In this document: piece after piece, positions 10,762-25,147 of the stretch
How the letters are laid out: each line of letters opens with the position of its first letter
Position numbering within the stretch: position 1 is the stretch's first letter
Assembly (NCBI GenBank): GCA_000004695.1
Contig: CM000153.2
Span: 384,001 to 448,000 of the forward strand
Length of the DNA stretch: 64,000 nt
Direction of reading: 5' to 3'
Origin: Dictyostelium discoideum
Lineage: Eukaryota
Position numbers and translations under genes: made by a program
Notes under the pieces: model-generated
What the model saw: the letters and a program-made list of their open reading frames with translations, nothing else
The model's database searches: none
What the model was told of the DNA's origin: nothing

Positions 10762-12456
10762 ATGATAAAAAATAATAGTAATGAAAATATATTAGTTATA
10801 AATTCAAATGATAATATTGAATTAGAATTAGAAAGTGATTTATTATTATATGATAATAATAAAAAGGAAATGTTTATAAAGAAAGAGAAAAAGATAAAGA
10901 CAATAAATATATCAATAGTATTTGCAATATTATTTTTTGGTGAAGTTGCAAGAGGTATAATTATTCCAACAATAAATTACTATTCAATATTGGTAGGTGG
11001 TACAGCGACGACATTGGGAATGGTGATATCGGCATTTAGTGCCGGTAGATTTTTAGCAACGATAGTACTTGGTTATTTCTCGAAATTCGATACCTATAAA
11101 AACATATTCAACATATCAATGGTACTTTGTATTATCGGTTCACTTTGGTATAGTTTCAGTTACATAGACCAAGGTAATCCGTTCATTGGTCAATCGTCAT
11201 TGGTAATTTCAAGATTCGTTTTGGGATTTGGTGCTGGTACATTGAGTACTGCACGTTCATTCCTCGCTGATATAACCATTCCATCAGAGCGTACCACTTG
11301 GATTGCACTATCATCAGCACTCCAATTCCTTGGATTTGCAGTTTCACCAATCATAGGTTCACTCCTATCCTATATACCACCCTTCTCAATTGATGAAGTT
11401 ATTAAAATAGATTCTATAACTTTACCTGGTTGGTTTTTAACATTCCAAAATTTCATACTTTTATTAATGATCATTTTCTATTTTCAAAATCCAACTTTAA
11501 ATCAATTAGCATCAAATAATAATAATATGATTAATTCATCATCAGATTTAAATTTAAATAAAAAAAATAATAAAAGTGGTAGTAATAATAATAGTGATAA
11601 TGAACAAGATGATTTTGAAATCGAAAGTTCATCATTAAAAAGTAGTGGTGGTGATGGTGATGGTGGTGATGGTGGTGGTGGTGGTGATAGTAGTACTACA
11701 CAATTATTATTAAATCAACAATCATCAAATAATTCAAAACAACAACAACAACAACAACAAAATCAATCAATTTATAGAATATTATATAATAATAAAAGAA
11801 TTTTTATAAATTTAATTATATTTATAATTTTAAATTTCTTTATTAGAGCAATACTTGGTATTTATGAAACATTAGGTTCAACATTCTATAGTAAATTAGA
11901 TACTAGTATTAATAGTAGTACAAATTCTGGTTACTTTTTTGGTAGTATGGGATTCTTGGGTATTGTATTATTGCTTGTTATAAGTTGGCTTTGCAAAAAG
12001 GAATTGCTACATGACTATTGGATATTATGCTTTGGTAATTTAATAATCACGATTGGCTGTTTCGCAACTATGGTTCATCAATTAAGTTGGACTCGATTTG
12101 TATTTGGTTATATTTGCATTTGGGGCATTGGTTTCACTTTGGCTCAAACCGTCGTAGTTTCAATGTTTTCAAAAATTCTCTCAAACACAATTGGTAACGC
12201 ATCTCAAGGTACTTTAATTGGTATCATCACTGCAAGTGGTTCATTGGGTCGTGTAATTGGTCCATTATTCTCGGGTTTACTCTATAATGAAAATGACCTC
12301 TTACCATTATTCTCTTTTGCTTTTGCTTTATCTTTAATCATATTATTCTCTTCAATTTTAATGATTCCAAAAGATATTTTAAAAATTAAATATTTAAATC
12401 ATAATGATAATAATAATAATGAATATAATGAAGAAAATTATAATTTAATAAAATAA
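10762..12456 (+). CDS. Major facilitator superfamily (MFS) transporter, 564 aa, single exon.
   Basis: Real ATG at 10762. There are about 12 hydrophobic segments and an MFS motif-A-like loop (GRFLATIVLGYFSKFDTYKN). The central loop is N/S/G/D-rich. Confidence 0.6.
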   Translation: MIKNNSNENILVINSNDNIELELESDLLLYDNNKKEMFIKKEKKIKTINISIVFAILFFGEVARGIIIPTINYYSILVGGTATTLGMVISAFSAGRFLATIVLGYFSKFDTYKNIFNISMVLCIIGSLWYSFSYIDQGNPFIGQSSLVISRFVLGFGAGTLSTARSFLADITIPSERTTWIALSSALQFLGFAVSPIIGSLLSYIPPFSIDEVIKIDSITLPGWFLTFQNFILLLMIIFYFQNPTLNQLASNNNNMINSSSDLNLNKKNNKSGSNNNSDNEQDDFEIESSSLKSSGGDGDGGDGGGGGDSSTTQLLLNQQSSNNSKQQQQQQQNQSIYRILYNNKRIFINLIIFIILNFFIRAILGIYETLGSTFYSKLDTSINSSTNSGYFFGSMGFLGIVLLLVISWLCKKELLHDYWILCFGNLIITIGCFATMVHQLSWTRFVFGYICIWGIGFTLAQTVVVSMFSKILSNTIGNASQGTLIGIITASGSLGRVIGPLFSGLLYNENDLLPLFSFAFALSLIILFSSILMIPKDILKIKYLNHNDNNNNEYNEENYNLIK

Positions 12457-14077: not shown

Positions 14078-14239
14078 CTCGATATTAAATTTTTTTTTTT
14101 TTTATTTTTTTTTTTTTGTTGATTAAATTTTTTTTTTTTTTTTTTTTAATTTTATTTTATTAATTTTATTTTTTTTAAAACCAAATTAGAGTTGAAGGAT
14201 TAACCAATATTTTTGGATATTGATAGAAAAGAGCTTTCC

Positions 14240-14570
14240 ATGGAAAGTAAAAAAAATAAAAATAGTAAAAAAAAAATAAATAAAAATAAAATTAATAAAA
14301 ATAACAATAAAAATAAACAACATGACAGATTATTAGGTGGTACTTCTATCACATGTGTTGATCAACTACAACAACAACAACAAAAAAAACAACAGCAACA
14401 ACAACAACAACAAAATATAACTTTAAATTTTGAAATTTTACCAAAGAAATCGTTAGAGAGTTCAAAAATATTTAGAAATTCAAGAGTAATTTACACTACA
14501 TATGGAAATGTGAGTTTAGTTAGTGCTAATCAAACTGGTTTTTTCCCTAATAATAATAATAATAATAATA

Positions 14571-14654
<84 letters not shown>

Positions 14655-14960
14655 GTAATAATAATGAATATAGTCTTTGTGTAAATAAAACTAAAAGTCT
14701 TGGGGATAAAATTGGACAACTGAATGAAAAAATAGAACAACAAGAGAGATTACTTGAAACAACTAAAATAAATGATAGTCCAACTGACAGTAAAAACAAT
14801 AGTAGCAATAACATTAACTGTAGCAGTAGCAGTAGCAGTAGCAGTAGCAGTAGCAGTAGCAGTAGCAGTAGCAGTAGCAGTAGCAGTAGCAGTAGCAGTA
14901 GCAGTAGCAGTAGCAGTAGCAGTAGCAGTAGCAGTAGTGGTGGCAGTTACAGTAATATTA

Positions 14961-14991
<31 letters not shown>

Positions 14992-15035
14992 TAGTAATAA
15001 TAATGCTAATAGTAATAATAATAATAATAATGATG

Positions 15036-15089
<54 letters not shown>

Positions 15090-15952
15090 GTAATAATAAT
15101 AAATGCCTTAACAAACCTGTTTTTTTGTGTTGTAAAATAAAAATCTGTCTTGATTGTGCATTAGAATCTCATCCAAAACACAAATATGCTTTAATCGAAA
15201 ATAATCATAGTAATAATAAAAGTGTACTTGACAATAATGATAATAAAAAAACTGTTATTGATTTAAATCAACAAAAGGAACTACCAACTGAAGATAATAT
15301 TTTAAAACCTCAAGCACTTCCAAAAGATGAAATTAATGATATTGCAGAGAAAACAAAGGATTTGAAATCAGTAAGGTGTAGTTTTCATAACAAAAATATA
15401 AACTCTCTATGTATATCTTGTGAGTTGGTTCCATTATGCGAGGAGTGCAAGACTAATCACAGAGGACACGAATTAGATAACTTGGATGAAAAAGTTGGTG
15501 GTTTTTTCAAGAGTTTAGACTTAAAACGACTTTACACAGATCTAAATAATGAAGAAAACTCTAAACATATAAATAAATATGCAGATGGGAATTTTTCTAA
15601 AGACTTCAACGAAATTTCTCAAGAATTTGAAAAGAAATTTAAAAAAGAAGTAATTTCTGTTCAAGAACAATTCAATAAACGAGATTCGGATTTCATAAGA
15701 AAAAAAACCAAACTTGAAGAAAAAAACAAATGTTTAATAGAAATGGGGGAACGTGTTTTAGAAAATGGTCATTTATATAATCCAAACTCTTTGAACGAAT
15801 CAGTTCACTATTATCAAAGGTTAATAGAATTGGTCCTAATTTCAAAAGAATTAGGGTTTAAACCAATAGATTTCCGTTCCTTGTTTCCTACAATTAGTAA
15901 ATTTTTATCGGAAATTAAAACCCTCGAAACTGATATCAATAATTTTTTATAA
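14240..15952 (+). CDS. B-box-type zinc-finger/coiled-coil protein, paralog A of a local family, with long poly-N and poly-S tracts.
   Basis: The ORF-track start at 14213 is TTG; the first ATG is at 14240 (MESKKNK...). It has a Cys-rich B-box-like module (CLNKPVFLCCKIKICLDCALESHPKHKY) and a second B-box (VRCSFHNKNINSLCISCELVPLCEECKTNHRGHELD). The C-terminal domain (LIEMGERVLENGHLYNPNSLNESVHYYQRLIELV) is shared with the paralog at 23180..25147. Confidence 0.6.
14823..14937 (+). repeat. (AGTAGC)n hexamer microsatellite encoding a run of about 38 serines inside paralog A.
   Basis: Perfect agcagt/agtagc repeats read directly from the sequence. They are flanked by (AAT)n poly-N tracts at 14540..14650 and 14960..15090. 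Confidence 0.9.
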
Positions 15953-16644
15953 ACAATTAGTATCATAAAACCATTTTATTATTTTTTTTTTGGTTTATTT
16001 TAATTTTAACCTGGAAATAATAAAAATAAAAAACCCAAAACATTTGAATCTGACAAAATTTTTTTTTTTTTTGGATTTTTTAAAATTTAGTCAAAAAAAA
16101 AAAAAAAAACAGAATGATTACCTTTTTTTTTTTTTTTTTTCTTTTATATCATTTTGTGTATTTTTGAGTGCTCTATTTATCTATACAAAACTCATATTAA
16201 AAATAAATAAAATTAAATTGTTGTTAAACACAACAAATTCAAAATGTGGGACTTTGTTAAAAGTGAGAATTTTTATATGGCCAAATTAAAAAAATTTGCT
16301 TTTATGCCTATGTTTTATACAAATAAAACCAGATTTTACAAAAATAAAATTAAAAAATAAATATTTAACAGTGTTTCTGAATTGTGGTATTTTGTTAAAA
16401 TAAAATAATAAAAAAATTAATCCAAACCAGCAAAATTGCAATTTTATTTTTTTTTTTTTTTTAAACAAAATGCCAATTTTTAACCGCTATTAGTGAATGG
16501 CCACAATTTTAATATAAATGTTTTTACCATCACGATATTATTTTAAAAAATTTCACTTTTTTTTTTTTCAAATTTTCTTTTTTTTTTTTTAAATTTTTTT
16601 TATTTTTTATTTTTTATTTTTTTTTTTTGTTTATTTACCAAAAA

Positions 16645-17257
16645 ATGATAAACTCAGAAAAACAATGTATACATCACAATAGAGATTTGGTAGTATTTTG
16701 TTTAAGTTGTTGTTATCCATGTTGTGTTGAATGCATGGCAAGTGAAAAACATCACTACCACGATTTTAAAAAAATAGAAGATGATAACTTTGATGTTTAC
16801 GATAATAAAAAAATTATCTCAATTCTAGAAAAATCAAAAGAAATTTTTGAAAATAAAAAAGCAAGTTACTATATAGATATCAAATCAGTTCATGATGGGT
16901 TTATTTTGATTCAAGAGCAATTAGAATTATTTAAAGATGGCATTTTAGAAAAACTGTTTAATTCTTTCAAGGAAAATTTGGTCATTAATGCAAAGATTGA
17001 AACTTTGGCTGGTGATATTTTAGTCACTGATAAAAATAGTGTATTTAAAATGATCGATCAATATAAAGAAAATAATATGGTAGGTTTGGTTCATACTTTG
17101 GTAGATAATATAAAAAACAATATAAACAATTGTTTTCAACAATTTAATGGAAACTATACAATTAATAAAAATAAAGATGCTGATAAAATTTCTGATTTTG
17201 AAAAAGGAACTATAGATCATATAAATAACAATCAAAATAATACCATCGTAAATAATA

Positions 17258-17317
<60 letters not shown>

Positions 17318-18258
17318 TTTTAATAGATAATAATGATAATATTAAAATAATAGTACCAAAAGATGTTGAATCATTGTCCTTAGATGGTTTAAAACAAGAA
17401 TTAATTATTGACTCAATTCCTAATTCTGTAATTCATCCCCCTTTAGAAGATGAATTCAATAAATGTACATTACACCCAAACAAAGACATAATATCCTTGT
17501 GTTTATATTGTGAATTAATGCCATGTTGTGCTCTATGTATATCAAGTGAAGGGGAGCATCATGGTCATAATTCTGATTCATTAAAATCAACTTCAAATAT
17601 TCTTTCATTAGCGAAAAATTTTAAAGATGATATATATCAAAAAGTAATAGGCAGAATAGAATCAAATCAAAAAATATTAAAAAAATCAAATGATATATAC
17701 TATGAAATTAAAAGAATTTACGATATTATTTCAATGATAGATTTAGATATTAAAAAACAATTAGAAACAACCTTTGACGATAATACATTAATAATAAATA
17801 CAAGTATAACTTCAATCAATAATGAAAATGAAATACTCTCAACAATAATTAATAATAATAAACATAACGATAATGATGTTGATAATGGTCAAACAGTAAT
17901 TGAAATATTAAATCAAATTATTATAAAAAACAATCAACAACTTGATAGAGATACAATTAAAATTATTAAACAATATCAACAATCATTAATAGTATTAAAT
18001 AATTATAATAATATATATAATTTTAATAAATTAAAAGAATATAAAAACCAAAGTATTCATTTTAATAATCAAATAATTGATGATATTAAAAATAATTTAA
18101 ATTCAATTTATATCTTAAATGACACTAATATTCATAAAAATAATAGATACAAAGTAGAAATCGATGAAAACAATAATGAATTTATTAACTGTAAGTTTTA
18201 TTTATACAAATTTTTTATAAATGATATTCACAATCTTCTAATTACCAAATATAGATGA
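16645..18258 (+). CDS. B-box zinc-finger protein, paralog B. It may continue by splicing into the FNIP-repeat array downstream (see findings).
   Basis: The ORF-track start at 16627 is TTG; the first ATG is at 16645 (MINSEKQCIHHNRDLVVFCLSCCYPCCVECMASEKHHYHDF). A second B-box is CTLHPNKDIISLCLYCELMPCCALCISSEGEHHGHNSD. A canonical GTAAGT sits at about 18192, 60 nt before the stop. Confidence 0.55.
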
Positions 18259-18382
18259 TGGTTTAAAGTTTTATATTTATACATATAGTGATTCTTTTAA
18301 ATTAAAAAATGGTTGTGGTATAGCATTTACAGACCATTGTAATATTTTATCAAAATTAAAAAATAAATTACCATTAAATGTA

Positions 18383-19732
18383 ATGCTGTTAGATGGATTC
18401 AATCAAAAATTAACACCAGGTATATTACCAGAAGGTGTTCAGTTATTGTATTTAGGTGATATTAAACAAGAATTAATGATTGGTTCAATTCCTAAAACTG
18501 TATTTAATGTCTATTTACTTGATGGATTCAATCAAAAACTATTACCAGAACGTGTTCGATCATTGCATTTAGGTGATATTAAACAAGAATTAATGATTGC
18601 TTCAATTCCTAAAACTGTATTAAGTCTCTATTTAGAAAATGGATTCAATCAAAAATTAACACCAGGTATATTACCAGAAGGTGTTAGATCATTGTATTTA
18701 CGTGATATTAAACAAGAATTAATAATTGGTTCAATTCCTAAAACTGTATCTAGTGTCCATTTAGAAAATGGATTCAATCAAAAATTAACACCAGGTATAT
18801 TACCAGAAGGTGTTATATCATTGTATTTATGTGATATTAAACAAGAATTAATAATTGGTTCAATTCCAAAAACTGTATATAGTGTCCATTTAGAAAATGG
18901 ATTCAATCAAAAATTAACACCAGGTATATTACCAGAAGGTGTTAAATTATTGTATTTAGGTGATATTAAACAAGAATTAATGATTGGTTCAATTCCTAAA
19001 ACTGTATCTAGTGTCCATTTAGAAGATGGATTCAATCAAAAACTAACACCAGGTATATTACCAGAAGGTGTTAAATCATTGGATTTAGGTGATATTAAAC
19101 AAGAATTAATAATTGGTTCAATTCCTAAAACTGTATCTAGTGTCTATTTAGAAAATGGATTCAATCAAAAATTAACACCAGGTATATTACCAGAAGGTGT
19201 TGAATCATTGGATTTAGGTGATATTAAACAAGAATTAATGATTGGTTCAATTCCTAAAACTGTATCTAGTGTCTATTTAGAAAATGGATTCAAACAAAAA
19301 TTAACACCAGGTATATTACCAGAAGGTGTTAAATCATTGCATTTATGTGATATTAAACAAGAATTAATGATTGGTTCAATTCCTAAAACTGTATTTAGTG
19401 TCTATTTAGAAAATGGATTCAATCAAAAATTAACACCAGGTATATTACCAGAAGGTGTTAAATCATTGCATTTACGTAATATTAAACAAGAATTAATGAT
19501 TGGTTCAATTCCTGAAACTGTATCTAGTGTCCATTTAGAAAATGGATTCAATCAAAAATTAACACCAGGTATATTACCAGAAGGTGTTAAATTATTGCAT
19601 TTAGGTGATATTAAACAAGAATTAATAATTGGTTCAATTCCTAAAACTGTAACTGAAGTGGTTATTTTTAGTAGTTTTAAACTACAAATTAAACCTTATG
19701 TTTCTGATACTGTTAAAATAACTATCGTGTAA
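18383..19732 (+). CDS. FNIP-repeat protein: 11 tandem repeats of about 41 aa (123 bp). It is possibly exon 2 (18255..19732) of the preceding B-box gene.
   Basis: The unit FNQKLTPGILPEGVxSLxLGDIKQELMIGSIPKTVSSVYLENG recurs 11 times. This is the FNIP repeat family typical of Dictyostelium. The frame stays open for 43 codons upstream of M18383, back to an AG acceptor at 18253-54. Confidence 0.6.
   Translation: MLLDGFNQKLTPGILPEGVQLLYLGDIKQELMIGSIPKTVFNVYLLDGFNQKLLPERVRSLHLGDIKQELMIASIPKTVLSLYLENGFNQKLTPGILPEGVRSLYLRDIKQELIIGSIPKTVSSVHLENGFNQKLTPGILPEGVISLYLCDIKQELIIGSIPKTVYSVHLENGFNQKLTPGILPEGVKLLYLGDIKQELMIGSIPKTVSSVHLEDGFNQKLTPGILPEGVKSLDLGDIKQELIIGSIPKTVSSVYLENGFNQKLTPGILPEGVESLDLGDIKQELMIGSIPKTVSSVYLENGFKQKLTPGILPEGVKSLHLCDIKQELMIGSIPKTVFSVYLENGFNQKLTPGILPEGVKSLHLRNIKQELMIGSIPETVSSVHLENGFNQKLTPGILPEGVKLLHLGDIKQELIIGSIPKTVTEVVIFSSFKLQIKPYVSDTVKITIV
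18395..19650 (+). repeat. 123-bp tandem DNA repeat array (x11) that encodes the FNIP repeats.
   Basis: ggattcaatcaaaaattaacaccaggtatattaccagaaggtgtt... recurs with over 90 percent identity. Confidence 0.9.
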
Positions 19733-19839
19733 AAAAAAAAAAACGGGTTTAATAAAGAATTCCAATAAAAAAAAATTGAAACCACAACATTTTAATTACT
19801 TTTTTTTTTTTTTTTTTTTTTTTTCCTTAAACCCTTAAA

Positions 19840-20110
19840 AACAAGTTAGAGTATTAGAACTAACCAATTATTCAACTTCAACTTCAATATCAATATCAAT
19901 ATCAATATCAACTTCAACTTCAACGAGCCCACATCGAGATCAACATCAAAAGCAAAGTCTTGGGGAGAAAATTAGACAACTTAACAAAGAAAATAAGACA
20001 ATAAGAAATATAACTTGAAACAACTAAAACAAATGATAGTCCTCCTGAAAAACAATAGTAATAGTAGTAGTAATAGTAGTAGTCAGCGGTGGTAGTAGCA
20101 CAATTTAATT
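19840..20110 (+). pseudogene. Decayed partial copy of the 5' region of B-box paralog A (14190..14830).
   Basis: aaagtcttggggagaaaattagacaacttaacaaagaaaat...cttgaaacaactaaaacaaatgatagtcc...agtagtagt closely matches 14690..14830 (aaagtcttggggataaaattggacaactgaatgaaaaaat...cttgaaacaactaaaataaatgatagtcc...agcagtagc). The 5' flank motif ttagag...aaccaat is also shared. The copy has no intact ORF. Confidence 0.5.
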
Positions 20111-20460
20111 ATCATTACCAAAATATAATCAAATTCCATTCAGATATTAAATATTCAAATTGAGATTATAATTGATGAAAATGAAATTATCAAAGATTTA
20201 TCATCAATTGTTGTAGGGAAATTTCAAAAAAATTTCACTACATTAACAGTAGTGATTTTTTGCAGTGAAAAACCAAAATGTATATTCAGTGAAAAAATTA
20301 ATAAACAATTACTTGATTGTTTAGATTAACAATTTACTTTCAAATTTGCGCCAAATTTTTTTTTTTTTTTAATTTTTTTTTAATTTTTTTTTTTTAATTT
20401 TTATAAAAAATATAAATATAAAAATGAAATAAAAAATTAAAGAAATATGAAAAAATGAAA

Positions 20461-20699: not shown

Positions 20700-21930
20700 T
20701 ATTGTTATATAATGGAAATAGAGATATTAAAACTCATAATATTTTATTGGATGGAAAATAATGATCCAATATTAATTGATTTTGGATTGTCAATAATAAA
20801 GGAACCAGATAACTCCAATTTTACTTCTAAATGTGGAACCACAAAATATTTACCACCAAAAAATTCCACTATGACTGATAAAGCTGATATTTGGTGTTTC
20901 GGATTAGCCATTCTTGAAATGTTTGGTGAATTGAAAACAGATTCGAATAATTTGCCAATAATTCATACTCATTTATCAAATGAATGTAAAGAAGTATTGG
21001 AACAGCTCTTAGGGTCGATCCAAATCATAGGTACAGTGCTAAACAATTATTGGAACTACCTTGGTTTAAAGATAAAGATTTACTTTCAATTTTTAAACAA
21101 AATGGTACAGATAATAAAATAATCAATGGAGGTATCACCATTAATTTAAAATACAATGATTCTTATTATTTTTTAAATCAACAAAGATGCAAATTCCACA
21201 CGTTGAAAGTGATAAAAGAACTTTTTTCAATTTTTATATAAACACTAAAGAAATTACAGAAACTATTGGTCCTTACGAATTAAATATTAAAAAAGAGTTT
21301 AACGAAAATCAAAACTATCTAAATTATTTGTTGAGTGGCCGCTACAATGGAGAAGATATTTCAAGTATGGAAAATAGGGTCAATGAACTTGTTCCTCGGA
21401 TTGTCTATCAAACTATTATTCATTTTCCAAATAAATTCATTTTAAAACAAAAATAAAAAAAAAAAAACTAAAATAAAATATAATAATGTTTTACCTATAT
21501 CCTTTATGGATAAAAAGTGTTTTTTTGTATATCCCCTCAATCCTTTTTTTAAAAATAATTATTCAAGAACAACAACAATTATCATTACCACTTTTTTTAA
21601 TTTTAATCAAAAATTAGTACCTGGAATATTATATTGGATCCACTTTCTATGCAAAAAGGTGATATTAAACTACAAGTGATAGTTTCAATTCCCAATATTG
21701 TAAAAACTATCTATATAGAAAGTGGATTCAATAAGTATAAACACCTGCTATATCACACAGGGTGTTATAAAATTGCATTTAGGTGGATTATACCAATGTT
21801 TCAAAGAAGAAAAAGCAAGAAAAGTTTTCATTCCAAAATTTTCAATATTTCAAGGAGGAGAAAAAAAACGATTTCAGTTGGTAACCAACAACAAATTGAA
21901 ACTAATCAAAAATCAAACTAACAACCATTA
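20700..21930 (+). pseudogene. Remnant of a protein-kinase/FNIP-repeat gene. It carries frameshifts and is truncated at the 5' end by the (TAA)n tract.
   Basis: 20712..21040 encodes a kinase C-lobe starting at the DFG motif (LIDFGLSIIKEPDNSNFTSKCGTTKYLPPK...DIWCFGLAILEMFGE) with no N-lobe. The frame then breaks (ORFs 21050.., 21187..). 21634..21800 holds degenerate FNIP-like units (IPNIVKTIYIESGFNKYKHL, GVIKLHLGG). Confidence 0.4.
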
Positions 21931-23179: not shown

Positions 23180-24038
23180 ATGGAAGATGAAGAGGATATT
23201 TTTGAAGATGTTGGAATTTTTAATTTTAATTTTCCAAGTATGTTTAAATCTTCTGGAAATGTTAATGATAATGATGGTTTCAGATGTTCGCAAGCAAATT
23301 GTAATAAAGCTTTTAAAAACAAAGGTCAACTATCTTCGCATGTTAGATGGCATAGAAGACTTGATGCACAATTAGAAAGTGAAACCGATAATGGTGAAGA
23401 AGAAGAGTATTCAAATCCAATTAAACCTTCACAAAGAGGAATTCAATTAAGAAATCAAATGATTCGTTATGGCTTAAGTTTATTTAGAGTAGATTCTCAT
23501 GGAAAATACCTTTGTTTCTTTGAAGGTTGTAATCTTCGAATGCTAACAAACTTTTCTAGACATATCCATAAACATGAACAAAGAAATGACAAAATTAAAC
23601 CTGATCTTGTTGATTTAATTCCAAACTCAAATAATATTCCAGAAACCCAAAATATAAGGCCATATTCTTTACCTTCATCACCAACAAATTGTAAAATTTC
23701 ACCAGTTTTTTCAAAAAACATTCAAAATTTAATTATTAATCAAAATAAATATAACAACAATTATAATACCAATAATACCAATAATAACTCTAATAATACA
23801 AATAGTAATACAAATAATTATAACCATAATGAAGAAAATCAAAAAACAATTGATTTTGATTTTAGAAAAAAAAATTTAAAATTTTTTAAAAATAAAATTG
23901 AATATAAAAATAAAAATGTTGTAAATAATAAAATTAATACTAATAATATTATTAATAATAATGATGAAAATAATGAAATTAATGAAATTAATGAAATTAA
24001 AGAAATTAACGAAACTAATGAAATTAGTATTAATAATC

Positions 24039-24106
<68 letters not shown>

Positions 24107-25147
24107 TATAATAGTAATTGGTTGAAAGGTGATCAAAAGTCAGTCTTTGAAAATATAATAAAAGAAACAAAATTAAAATTATTACATAGTGGAAAAGAAG
24201 ATCTCTCTACAAAAAAAAAGGATTTCAACAATGATCCATCGCAAAGATTTATTTTCAAAATTCAAAGAAAATTTGTAAAATATATGGTTTCTAAGTACTT
24301 AGAAAATCATACAATAATTCATAATCCAGAACAACTTAAATTATGTGCGCCACCAATCATTAAAGAATATCTTGAAGAATTAATGTTGGAACAATCTAGT
24401 TTTAAAGAATTTTGTGATTTAATTGCAACAAATATTGGAAATGATAAAATTTTTGATGGAATAATTAAAAACAATAATTTAATGAGCATTAATTTTATAA
24501 ACAACAATAATAATATTAATAAAAAAAGTAAAGATCAAAATATAGAAAATATTAAGGATTTACAATCAATTAGATGCAGCCATCACTCTGATAAATTCAT
24601 TAACTTTATATGCAAAGATTGCAACTATCTACCATGTTGCGAGAGATGTAAAGATATTTTTTATCATAAAAGACACCAAGTTGAAGAATTGGATGAAATC
24701 AATGTTGACAATTTCATAAACAATTTAGATAGAAAACGTTTTAATATTGAAGTAATTAATGAAAACAATTGTCAATCTATAAATAAAAAAATAAATGGAC
24801 TTGGTTTGGGACATTTCAAAGAAACTCTTACAAATTTAATAGATAAAATAAATAAATGTGTATCAAAGACTATTGAACCACAATTTACAGATAGGGAAAT
24901 AAAAAACTTGGAGAAAATCATTACAATTGATGAAAAAAACAATAAATTAAAAGAAATGGGTGAACTTGTTATGCAGAATGGTGATTTAAAAAATCCAAAT
25001 TCTTTAAAAACTGCCGTTCACTATCTTCAAAATTTAGTGGAATTTGAAGAAATTAAAAAAGATTTGGAATTTACTCGTATAAATTTTGAAAAATTATTGG
25101 ATCTACTCAAATTGTTTGAATCAACAATTTCAAACCCCAATTGGTAA
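23180..25147 (+). CDS. C2H2 + B-box zinc-finger/coiled-coil protein, paralog C, 655 aa.
   Basis: Real ATG at 23180. Two C2H2 fingers (FRCSQANCNKAFKNKGQLSSHVRWH; YLCFFEGCNLRMLTNFSRHIHKH), a B-box (IRCSHHSDKFINFICKDCNYLPCCERCKDIFYHKRHQ), and a C-terminal domain KLKEMGELVMQNGDLKNPNSLKTAVHYLQNLVEF homologous to paralog A. Confidence 0.65.

Follow-up and report, generated by a model that had tools for sequence, protein, structure and literature searches.

The window analyzed here, a 64,000-nucleotide (nt) stretch of the Dictyostelium discoideum genome (GCA_000004695.1, contig CM000153.2, positions 384,001 to 448,000 of the forward strand), has a G+C content of 23.4% and contains poly-Asn tracts, FNIP repeats and B-box open reading frames (ORFs). 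Two neighboring ORFs, a B-box ORF at 16627..18258 (ORF1) and an ORF with FNIP repeats at 18383..19732 (FNIP ORF), very probably constitute one gene for a protein with two B-boxes, a putative coiled coil and FNIP repeats, and would be joined by the removal of a 64-nt intron. The gene is located on the plus strand of D. discoideum nuclear DNA close to DDB_G0283191, since the single-exon MFS transporter gene at 10762-12456 is identical to this AX4 protein (XP_639212.1). Furthermore, window positions 719-22479 correspond at 99.7% identity to the chromosome-scale contig CM142510.1 of the D. discoideum assembly GCA_054883475.1, with zero differences across 16000-20300. Because the genes of the window may contain introns, bacterial-style ORF lists are a poor guide to them.

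A sequence-only reading of this stretch had proposed a 62-nt intron with a GTAAGT donor at about 18192, 60 nt before the ORF1 stop, and an AG acceptor at 18253-54. Both splice signals are indeed present, the donor exactly at 18191-18196, but the intron measures 64 nt, and the donor G at 18191 lies 65 nt before the TGA at 18256-18258 (Table 1). The proposed phase 1 was confirmed by reading of the sequence and by recomputation: the last base of exon 1 (T at 18190) is codon position 1 and together with AT at 18255-18256 gives TAT (Tyr), followed by DGLKFYIYTYSDSFKLKNGCGIAFTDHCNILSKLKNKLPLNV and then by MLLDGFNQKL of the FNIP ORF. Removal of the intron yields an unbroken frame of 1007 codons. As for ORF1, it probably starts with the ATG at 16645, from which the public gene call also begins, rather than with the TTG at 16627.

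Upstream of the ATG at 18383, the FNIP frame stays open for 47 codons, beginning at 18242. The TAA that bounds it upstream (18239-18241) is part of the branch-site motif TCTAAT, and therefore the frame is open from the first codon past the branch point. The probability that 43 to 47 codons stay stop-free was 0.6-1.7% according to three composition models and 0.7% according to shuffling, so that the earlier estimate of about 1% for a 43-codon open frame holds. The open frame is not decisive alone, because 25 different GT..AG pairs join both frames stop-free. Only 18191-18254, however, pairs a consensus donor with retention of all paralogue-conserved sequence. The downstream acceptor ACATATAG (18288), which is used in a D. 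cf. discoideum gene model, was rejected: with the donor at 18191 it leads to a frameshift and an early stop, and it is in frame only with a poor donor, GTTTTA at 18195.

When residues 1-650 of the fused product were used as the query of a protein search, eight Dictyostelium proteins were recovered, among them the AX4 protein DDB_G0289849 (E = 1e-163). In six of the eight, B-box (PF00643) and FNIP (PF05725) are present in one polypeptide, while P0007 and P0008 have only FNIP. When DDB_G0289849 was mapped to its own genomic DNA, exactly one intron was found, 61 nt long and in phase 1, at FFK|W. It splits a Trp codon that matches the split Tyr codon of the window gene, and its sequence (GTAAGC...TTCTAATTACCAAATATAG) has a 3' end identical to that of the window intron. 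A phase-1 intron at the same codon was also detected in four more annotated paralogues from four other assemblies (75, 64, 78 and 52 nt) and in the 608-amino-acid (aa) gene adjoining DDB_G0289849 (61 nt). In the window gene and in all seven paralogues examined, the phase-1 intron is located between ...EIDEN.N.F[FI]x and [WY]..., and the family lengths, window included, are 52, 61, 61, 64, 64, 75 and 78 nt. The paralogous introns (78-83% AT; 52-78 nt) cover the values of the window intron.

In the DNA alignment of the family, the donor, a TTCTAAT/TTACTAAC branch-like motif and the acceptor line up; indels are found only inside the intron, and the flanks align as codons. The acceptor AAATATAG or AAATACAG was kept in all seven aligned homologues, and read-through of the intron leads to a stop codon in five of the six genes tested. 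The intron thus appears to evolve as noncoding sequence, with in-frame stops and with length changes that are not multiples of three. The homologous intron of the D. discoideum paralogue P0006 (L006 2330-2407) comprises 78 nt, a multiple of three without an in-frame stop, and its retention would insert 26 residues and cause no truncation. With high confidence, 18191-18254 can be regarded as a conventional U2-type GT-AG spliceosomal intron.

The protein sequences are in line with this assignment. The fused product is 62-72% identical to the seven paralogues over the aligned region, and the alignment is gapless at the junction, with invariant columns on both sides. The linker block IAF.D.CN.LSKLKN.LP..VMLLD and the C-terminal cap SFK.QI.PYV are kept across the family. 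A structure model was made with AlphaFold of the paralogue DDB_G0289849, not of the window product. It contains solenoid beta-strands every ~21-22 residues with predicted local distance difference test (pLDDT) values of 70-93, the first confident elements being located in the linker region, and the equivalent of the Met encoded at 18383 lies inside a predicted beta-strand, VMLL. Long helices follow the B-box (H59-135 and others), at pLDDT < 50. The Met at 18383 also fits the repeat register (KLPLNV-MLLDGFNQKL versus IPKTVFNV-YLLDGFNQKL). We conclude that it is an internal residue and not a start codon. According to its sequence, the window gene appears to be a member of a DDB_G0289849-like B-box and FNIP family, whereby the presence of both domains in one polypeptide depends on the inferred splice.

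Furthermore, the coding signal was analyzed across the junction, using a codon-usage score trained on ten other long ORFs of the window. The 42-codon linker scored +32.6 bits in the proposed frame and -57 and -52 bits in the other two, and compared with 1445 AT-rich non-ORF control windows it ranks in the top 1%. For the 22 codons that are read through at the end of ORF1, the score in the ORF1 frame was -10.9 bits, and this tail looks noncoding. The coding signal therefore switches frame exactly at the proposed intron. Moreover, the longest A/T run in the 124 nt between the ORF1 stop and the ATG at 18383 is 6, versus 18 and 25 in the flanking intergenic DNA. The linker is coding sequence rather than an intergenic spacer. 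Pfam analysis of the linker alone did not detect a FNIP match upstream of the Met at 18383, so that sequence profiles lend no support to the linker being a recognizable FNIP repeat; that it is part of the solenoid is suggested only by the repeat register and the structure model.

Exon 1 encodes, in this order, B-box 1, a putative coiled coil, a poly-Asn tract, a relic FNIP repeat, B-box 2 and another putative coiled-coil region. Pfam zf-B_box (PF00643) recognized two stretches (33.5 bits; cut-off, 24.1 bits), and the region of B-box 1 can be aligned to the region of B-box 2 with 29% identity over 129 aa (E = 3e-10). The N-terminal 270 residues (16645-17457) form a second, diverged B-box/coiled-coil module, which contains a poly-Asn tract of 22 residues and ends with the relic FNIP repeat. 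Since all seven paralogues have a single module, the window gene looks like a fusion of two tandem members of the B-box/FNIP family.

In the fused product, Pfam FNIP (PF05725) scored 333 bits (E = 1.2e-101) with 10 stretches. The array is composed of 10 full 43-aa (129-nt) units and a degenerate terminal half-unit; these double units contain GFNQKL..ILP and ..SIPKTV. A fused B-box protein with 11 FNIP repeats had been proposed earlier, of which the fusion is supported, while the number of B-boxes is two and that of the repeats is as given above. Among themselves, the 8.6 youngest copies (18540-19651) share 95% identity, and all of them are in frame. This degree of identity points to recent amplification or homogenization and would fit unequal crossing-over or concerted evolution that is still going on in the array. 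Across family members, the FNIP copy number varies between 2 and 10 units.

Table 1. Predicted features of the B-box/FNIP gene and of its proposed 3' extension (window positions)
Feature	Position	Strand	Remarks
Exon 1	16645..18190	+	First ORF1 ATG through the base preceding the donor; 515 codons + 1 base
B-box zinc finger 1	16660..16764	+	Residues ~6-40; C-x2-H-x7-C-x7-C-x2-C-x5-H-x2-H (spacing read from translation)
Relic single FNIP-like repeat	17350..17457	+	Residues 236-271, IVPKDVESLSLDGLKQELIIDSIPNSV...; 47% identical to first true FNIP repeat, E = 8e-7
B-box zinc finger 2	17458..17577	+	Residues 272-311; best PF00643 stretch; common to all single-module paralogues
Intron (predicted)	18191..18254	+	64 nt, GT-AG, phase 1, 83% AT
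5' splice site GTAAGT	18191..18196	+	Sole GTAAGT in 18100-18400; GTAAG kept in all paralogues and in orthologue
Branch-point-like TCTAAT (wCTAAT)	18237..18242	+	Presumed branch A at 18241, 13 nt before last intron base
3' splice site ATAG	18251..18254	+	AG at 18253-18254; acceptor context ...AAATATAG
Exon 2	18255..19732	+	Conserved linker, FNIP array, family-typical C-terminus ...SFKLQIKPYVSDTVKITIV*; stop codon 19730-19732 included
Linker	18255..18382	+	Last two bases of split Tyr codon + 42 codons upstream of FNIP ATG
TGA stop	18256..18258	+	Met by ORF1 only upon intron retention; read-through tail CKFYLYKFFINDIHNLLITKYR
ATG opening FNIP ORF	18383..18385	+	Internal Met; column (M288 of first row) invariant in 8/8 aligned family members
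Tandem FNIP array	18393..19651	+	129-nt (43-aa) period; Tandem Repeats Finder and Pfam
Doubtful second intron	19729..19849	+	121 nt; donor GTAAAA; needed by 1062-aa model; removes natural stop
Doubtful third exon	19850..20018	+	56 aa; low-complexity STSTSISIS stretch; codon-usage score +2.1 bits (neutral)

The assembly GCA_054883475.1 calls one gene at this locus (L003 15861-19234; 1062 aa), which corresponds to window positions 16645-20018 and has the same ATG. By coordinate arithmetic, the gene lies on the complement of about 5,145,023-5,148,396 of CM142510.1. All structures with one to three GT-AG introns, each of at least 25 nt, that give an uninterrupted 1062-codon frame were enumerated. 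Exactly one structure fits, with introns 18191-18254 and 19729-19849, and therefore the public model must use the intron 18191-18254. The assemblies are probably those of Holland et al. 2025 (PRJNA1300491; PMC12745789). The public 1062-aa model counts as an independent prediction and not as transcript evidence. Homologous introns, the gapless protein alignment, the frame switch in codon usage and the public gene call together support the earlier proposal that ORF 16627..18258 and FNIP ORF 18383..19732 are one gene.

According to this reading, transcription would be initiated upstream of the ATG at 16645, where the DNA is T-rich. The U1 particle would pair with GTAAGT at 18191, TCTAAT (A at ~18241) would serve as the branch site, and cleavage would take place after ATAG at 18254. 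Upon the presumed excision in vivo, T at 18190 would be joined to AT at 18255-56 as a Tyr codon. The mRNA, ending at a putative poly(A) site, would encode ~1007 aa up to the stop codon at 19730-19732. In the predicted protein, B-box 1, coiled coil, poly-Asn, relic FNIP repeat, B-box 2 and coiled coil would be followed by the 42-residue linker, 10 FNIP double repeats and a C-terminal cap. By analogy with B-box/coiled-coil proteins and with AreA (DDB_G0279871), the product would most likely serve as a scaffold for protein-protein interactions, in which the B-box/coiled-coil part would oligomerize and the leucine-rich repeat (LRR) solenoid would bind a partner.

The locus was also compared with its syntenic counterpart in the sister lineage D. 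cf. discoideum (L002 8001-9976 versus window ~15466-18495), where the flanking genes are ~93% identical. No counterpart of window positions 16072-17547 is present there. The donor, the branch motif and the acceptor are kept, a 2-nt deletion is found just after the acceptor, and about one FNIP unit remains. The D. cf. discoideum gene model at this place, P0008 (376 aa), uses the later acceptor and is a chimera with the tail of the upstream gene, with introns of 607 nt and 106 nt. A protein search with a 172-aa query centered on the junction gave four matches, none of them from the locus; the only Logan match, P0014, represents a diverged relative and comes from a genomic contig that is unspliced.

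Several observations weigh against a spliced and functional gene. Introns of D. discoideum (~17,300) have 89% AT, a median length of 103 nt and ACTAAT/wCTAAT as the commonest branch motifs (PMC2483917). The window intron shares with them the GT-AG ends, the GTAAGT donor, the wCTAAT motif, AT-richness and shortness, but it differs in length (64 nt) and AT content (83%). For the linker (45 codons, compared with five paralogues), the ratio of nonsynonymous to synonymous substitution rates (dN/dS) was 0.5-1.65 on ~25 synonymous sites, which shows no purifying selection and carries little information. In the structure model of the paralogue, the junction and the whole B-box/coiled-coil part have a pLDDT of < 50, and therefore the model says nothing on the junction. 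The exon structure of the public model was derived by enumeration and not from its sequence. Moreover, RNA-seq is not mentioned in the main text of PMC12745789, so that this model may be ab initio. The state of the D. cf. discoideum locus suggests that the orthologue has decayed, and the gene may therefore not be under strong constraint; mainly because of this decay, a small probability is kept for a dispensable or poorly expressed gene in D. discoideum. Finally, none of four products (fused 1007-aa, ORF1-only, FNIP-only and reconstructed 1062-aa) had an exact match in the protein collection, and an exact scan of metagenome contigs with the spliced-junction 32-mer gave no match and was uninformative. 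The silence of the protein searches is weak evidence, since the junction query missed the known family, with which it shares long identical stretches, and since the collection also lacks the 1062-aa product recorded in the gene index.

Where the gene ends depends on the second intron of the public model. A three-exon gene, in which this intron adds 56 residues up to 20018, agrees with the two-exon gene on the 64-nt intron, and no other GT-AG structure fits the 1062-aa call. Furthermore, a long T tract lies upstream of the putative second acceptor, in line with the polyT peak 15-40 nt from D. discoideum acceptors (PMC2483917). Its donor, however, is GTAAAA instead of GTAAG, and a wCTAAy motif was not found in 19729-19849. 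All paralogues, including DDB_G0289849, end within 1-2 residues of the natural stop at 19730-19732 (...PYVSKNVKIIK* versus ...PYVSDTVKITIV*). AATAAA is present at 19751 and 19764, 20-35 nt past this stop, which is weak evidence because the DNA is so AT-rich. The third exon is of low complexity with a neutral codon-usage score. Part of it appears to derive from the relic of a duplication: a segment of about 150 nt directly past the gene, at 19954-20100, represents a copy, with 78% identity, of an internal coding stretch (14694-14843) of the upstream B-box gene (KSLGDKIGQLNEK... versus QSLGEKIRQLNKE...). This copy suggests that the gene pair was once duplicated in tandem. The second intron and the third exon are probably an annotation overprediction, and we consider the three-exon gene doubtful and favor, as the probable product, the two-exon protein of 1007 aa.

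The remaining alternatives concern the 64-nt intron itself and the fate of the locus. Two separate genes, a B-box gene ending with the TGA at 18256-18258 and a FNIP gene starting with the ATG at 18383, would be compatible with the integrity of each ORF alone, with the AATAAA at 18362 and with one truncated paralogue model without FNIP repeats (P0015). The splice signals would then be present by chance, and GT..AG pairs are plentiful in AT-rich DNA, as the 25 in-frame stop-free joins illustrate. Such a separation is highly improbable. By codon usage, the 124-nt gap is coding in the FNIP frame, and it is free of long A/T runs; the ORF1 tail scores as noncoding. Seven paralogues keep both the linker and the Met inside their protein sequences, and the intron has annotated homologues. 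In the paralogue model, the solenoid fold starts before the Met (at moderate confidence), and the sole public call at the locus is a single gene. A real intron may, on the other hand, be retained in a regulated manner, giving rise to the full-length B-box-FNIP protein and to an unspliced B-box/coiled-coil isoform of 537 aa ending with ...CKFYLYKFFINDIHNLLITKYR. The clean stop 22 codons into the read-through would allow this, and the 78-nt intron of P0006, which is open on read-through, indicates that retained forms are not always truncating. Regulated retention is nevertheless unlikely, given that the splice signals are strong consensus matches and that the tail is noncoding by score, is not conserved as protein and has its frame broken by indels in paralogues. 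It is likewise unlikely that the intron is real by descent but that the locus is a decaying or unexpressed pseudogene without a functional fused protein. To this, the D. cf. discoideum locus with its missing segment, 2-nt deletion and single FNIP unit can be related, as can the nearby relics (the gene fragment copy at 19954-20100 and a kinase fragment at 20712-21122), the double-module structure, which is unique in the family, and the absence of the locus product, from AX4 or another assembly, among the protein-search matches. The last point is weak, as explained above, and 1007 codons are open over two exons where a random 43-codon stretch stays open in about 1% of cases. Moreover, the zinc-ligand pattern is preserved in both B-boxes, which score above the Pfam cut-off, the splice signals are undamaged, and the 95% identical array copies are all in frame. 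A further unlikely reading combines a young, D. discoideum-specific fusion of two tandem members with the 64-nt intron as a switch between the 537-aa retained form and a spliced, receptor-like 1007-aa form. Here, the B-box, the coiled coil and one relic FNIP repeat of module 1 would have remained, and the intron, linker, array and stop codon that once belonged to it would have disappeared. D. cf. discoideum would have lost or never had the N-terminal module. If true, the locus would offer a natural example, on a small scale, of how repeat-protein genes arise and disappear.

The single spliced gene, which we consider the best explanation, is mainly of importance for annotation quality: it concerns the exon arrangement of a single gene from a large Dictyostelium family that evolves rapidly, and it touches no long-standing open question. 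The intron is already known in kind, since it is annotated in the reference paralogue and apparently also at the locus in the public assembly. The case illustrates that a real short intron in 80% AT DNA can be recognized without tools from splice signals and an unexpectedly open frame. Compared with the public three-exon 1062-aa model, which probably absorbs a duplicated relic, the two-exon model (1007 aa, ending at 19732) has the better support. The two B-box/coiled-coil modules are of possible interest for studies of expansion and decay in the FNIP/LRR family.

The gene is flanked by B-box-containing ORFs at 14213-15952 (upstream) and 23180-25147 (downstream). The B-box of the upstream ORF passes the Pfam cut-off, and this ORF contains very long poly-Asn and poly-Ser tracts. 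It was tentatively taken as a close paralogue ('paralog A'), which was rejected, the similarity being at the B-box level only (34% over 35 aa). The downstream ORF encodes a C2H2 finger and a sub-threshold B-box. A protein-kinase domain fragment is found at 20712-21122 (Pkinase, 30.4 bits; cut-off, 31.7 bits), and short ORFs with FNIP-like remnants (FNQKLVPGIL, SIPNIVKTIYIESGFNK) are found at 21506-21921. A kinase/FNIP gene may have decayed in the region 20712-21921, where the public assembly has calls for genes of 220 aa and 114 aa. Elsewhere in the window, islands of 37-40% G+C (28001-29000, 33001-35000, 49001-50000 and 52001-53000) presumably represent the most conserved coding exons, of the ORFs 28204-29523, 33224-35809, 48962-50347 and 52406-53353, respectively.

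The closest known system is the DDB_G0289849 family, which also comprises DDB_G0289799, ACTFIT_001129/001230 and the D. cf. discoideum ACTFIZ/ACTFIY models. The window gene shares with it the order of B-box, putative coiled coil, linker and FNIP array, the C-terminal cap ...SFKHQIEPYVSKNVKIIK and the phase-1 intron of 52-78 nt at the same codon; the protein identity of 62-72% refers to the second module and the array. It differs in its extra diverged N-terminal module (residues 1-270), which is present in none of the seven paralogues, in an array of 10 units versus 2-5, and in its location on a different chromosome-scale contig from the DDB_G0289849 cluster.

Among Dictyostelium proteins described as having a B-box zinc finger and FNIP repeats, as the window gene has, AreA (DDB_G0279871) of D. 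discoideum is the only one studied experimentally (PMC4554924). It binds Atg101 and restrains autophagic flux, and both of its domain types are regarded as protein-protein interaction modules (PMC4554924). AreA contains DUF4559, whereas Pfam detected no DUF4559 match in the window product, and the two are likened by domain types alone; a role of the window gene in autophagy is pure speculation.

FNIP or FGxxFN (IP22) repeats are a structurally defined class of leucine-rich repeats (PMC9525666), for which crystal structures of Crov588 and Crov539 are available. Proteins of this class are defined by tandem repeats of ~22 residues that carry an FN motif and an IP/LP sub-motif and build an LRR solenoid (PMC9525666). 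To such LRR proteins of Dictyostelium and giant viruses (PF05725), the window product is related by its FNIP match (E = 1e-101), and the beta-strand solenoid in the model of the paralogue fits the LRR fold (PMC9525666). The window repeat alternates two halves of 21-22 residues, ..GFNQKLTPGILPEGV.. and ..LxLGDIKQELxIGSIPKTV.., with the FN motif in the first half only, and its G-F-N spacing differs from the viral FGxxFN consensus.

Finally, the order of a B-box, predicted long helices and a C-terminal repeat domain is reminiscent of TRIM/RBCC proteins (RING, B-box, coiled coil and a C-terminal recognition domain), and HHpred ties the B-box of AreA to TRIMs (PMC4554924). Pfam detected no RING-type match, and hence not the defining E3 module, at E <= 0.01 in the 1007-aa product, which is therefore not a member of the TRIM family. 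While the C-terminal domain of TRIM/RBCC proteins is PRY-SPRY, NHL or similar, that of the window gene is an LRR domain.

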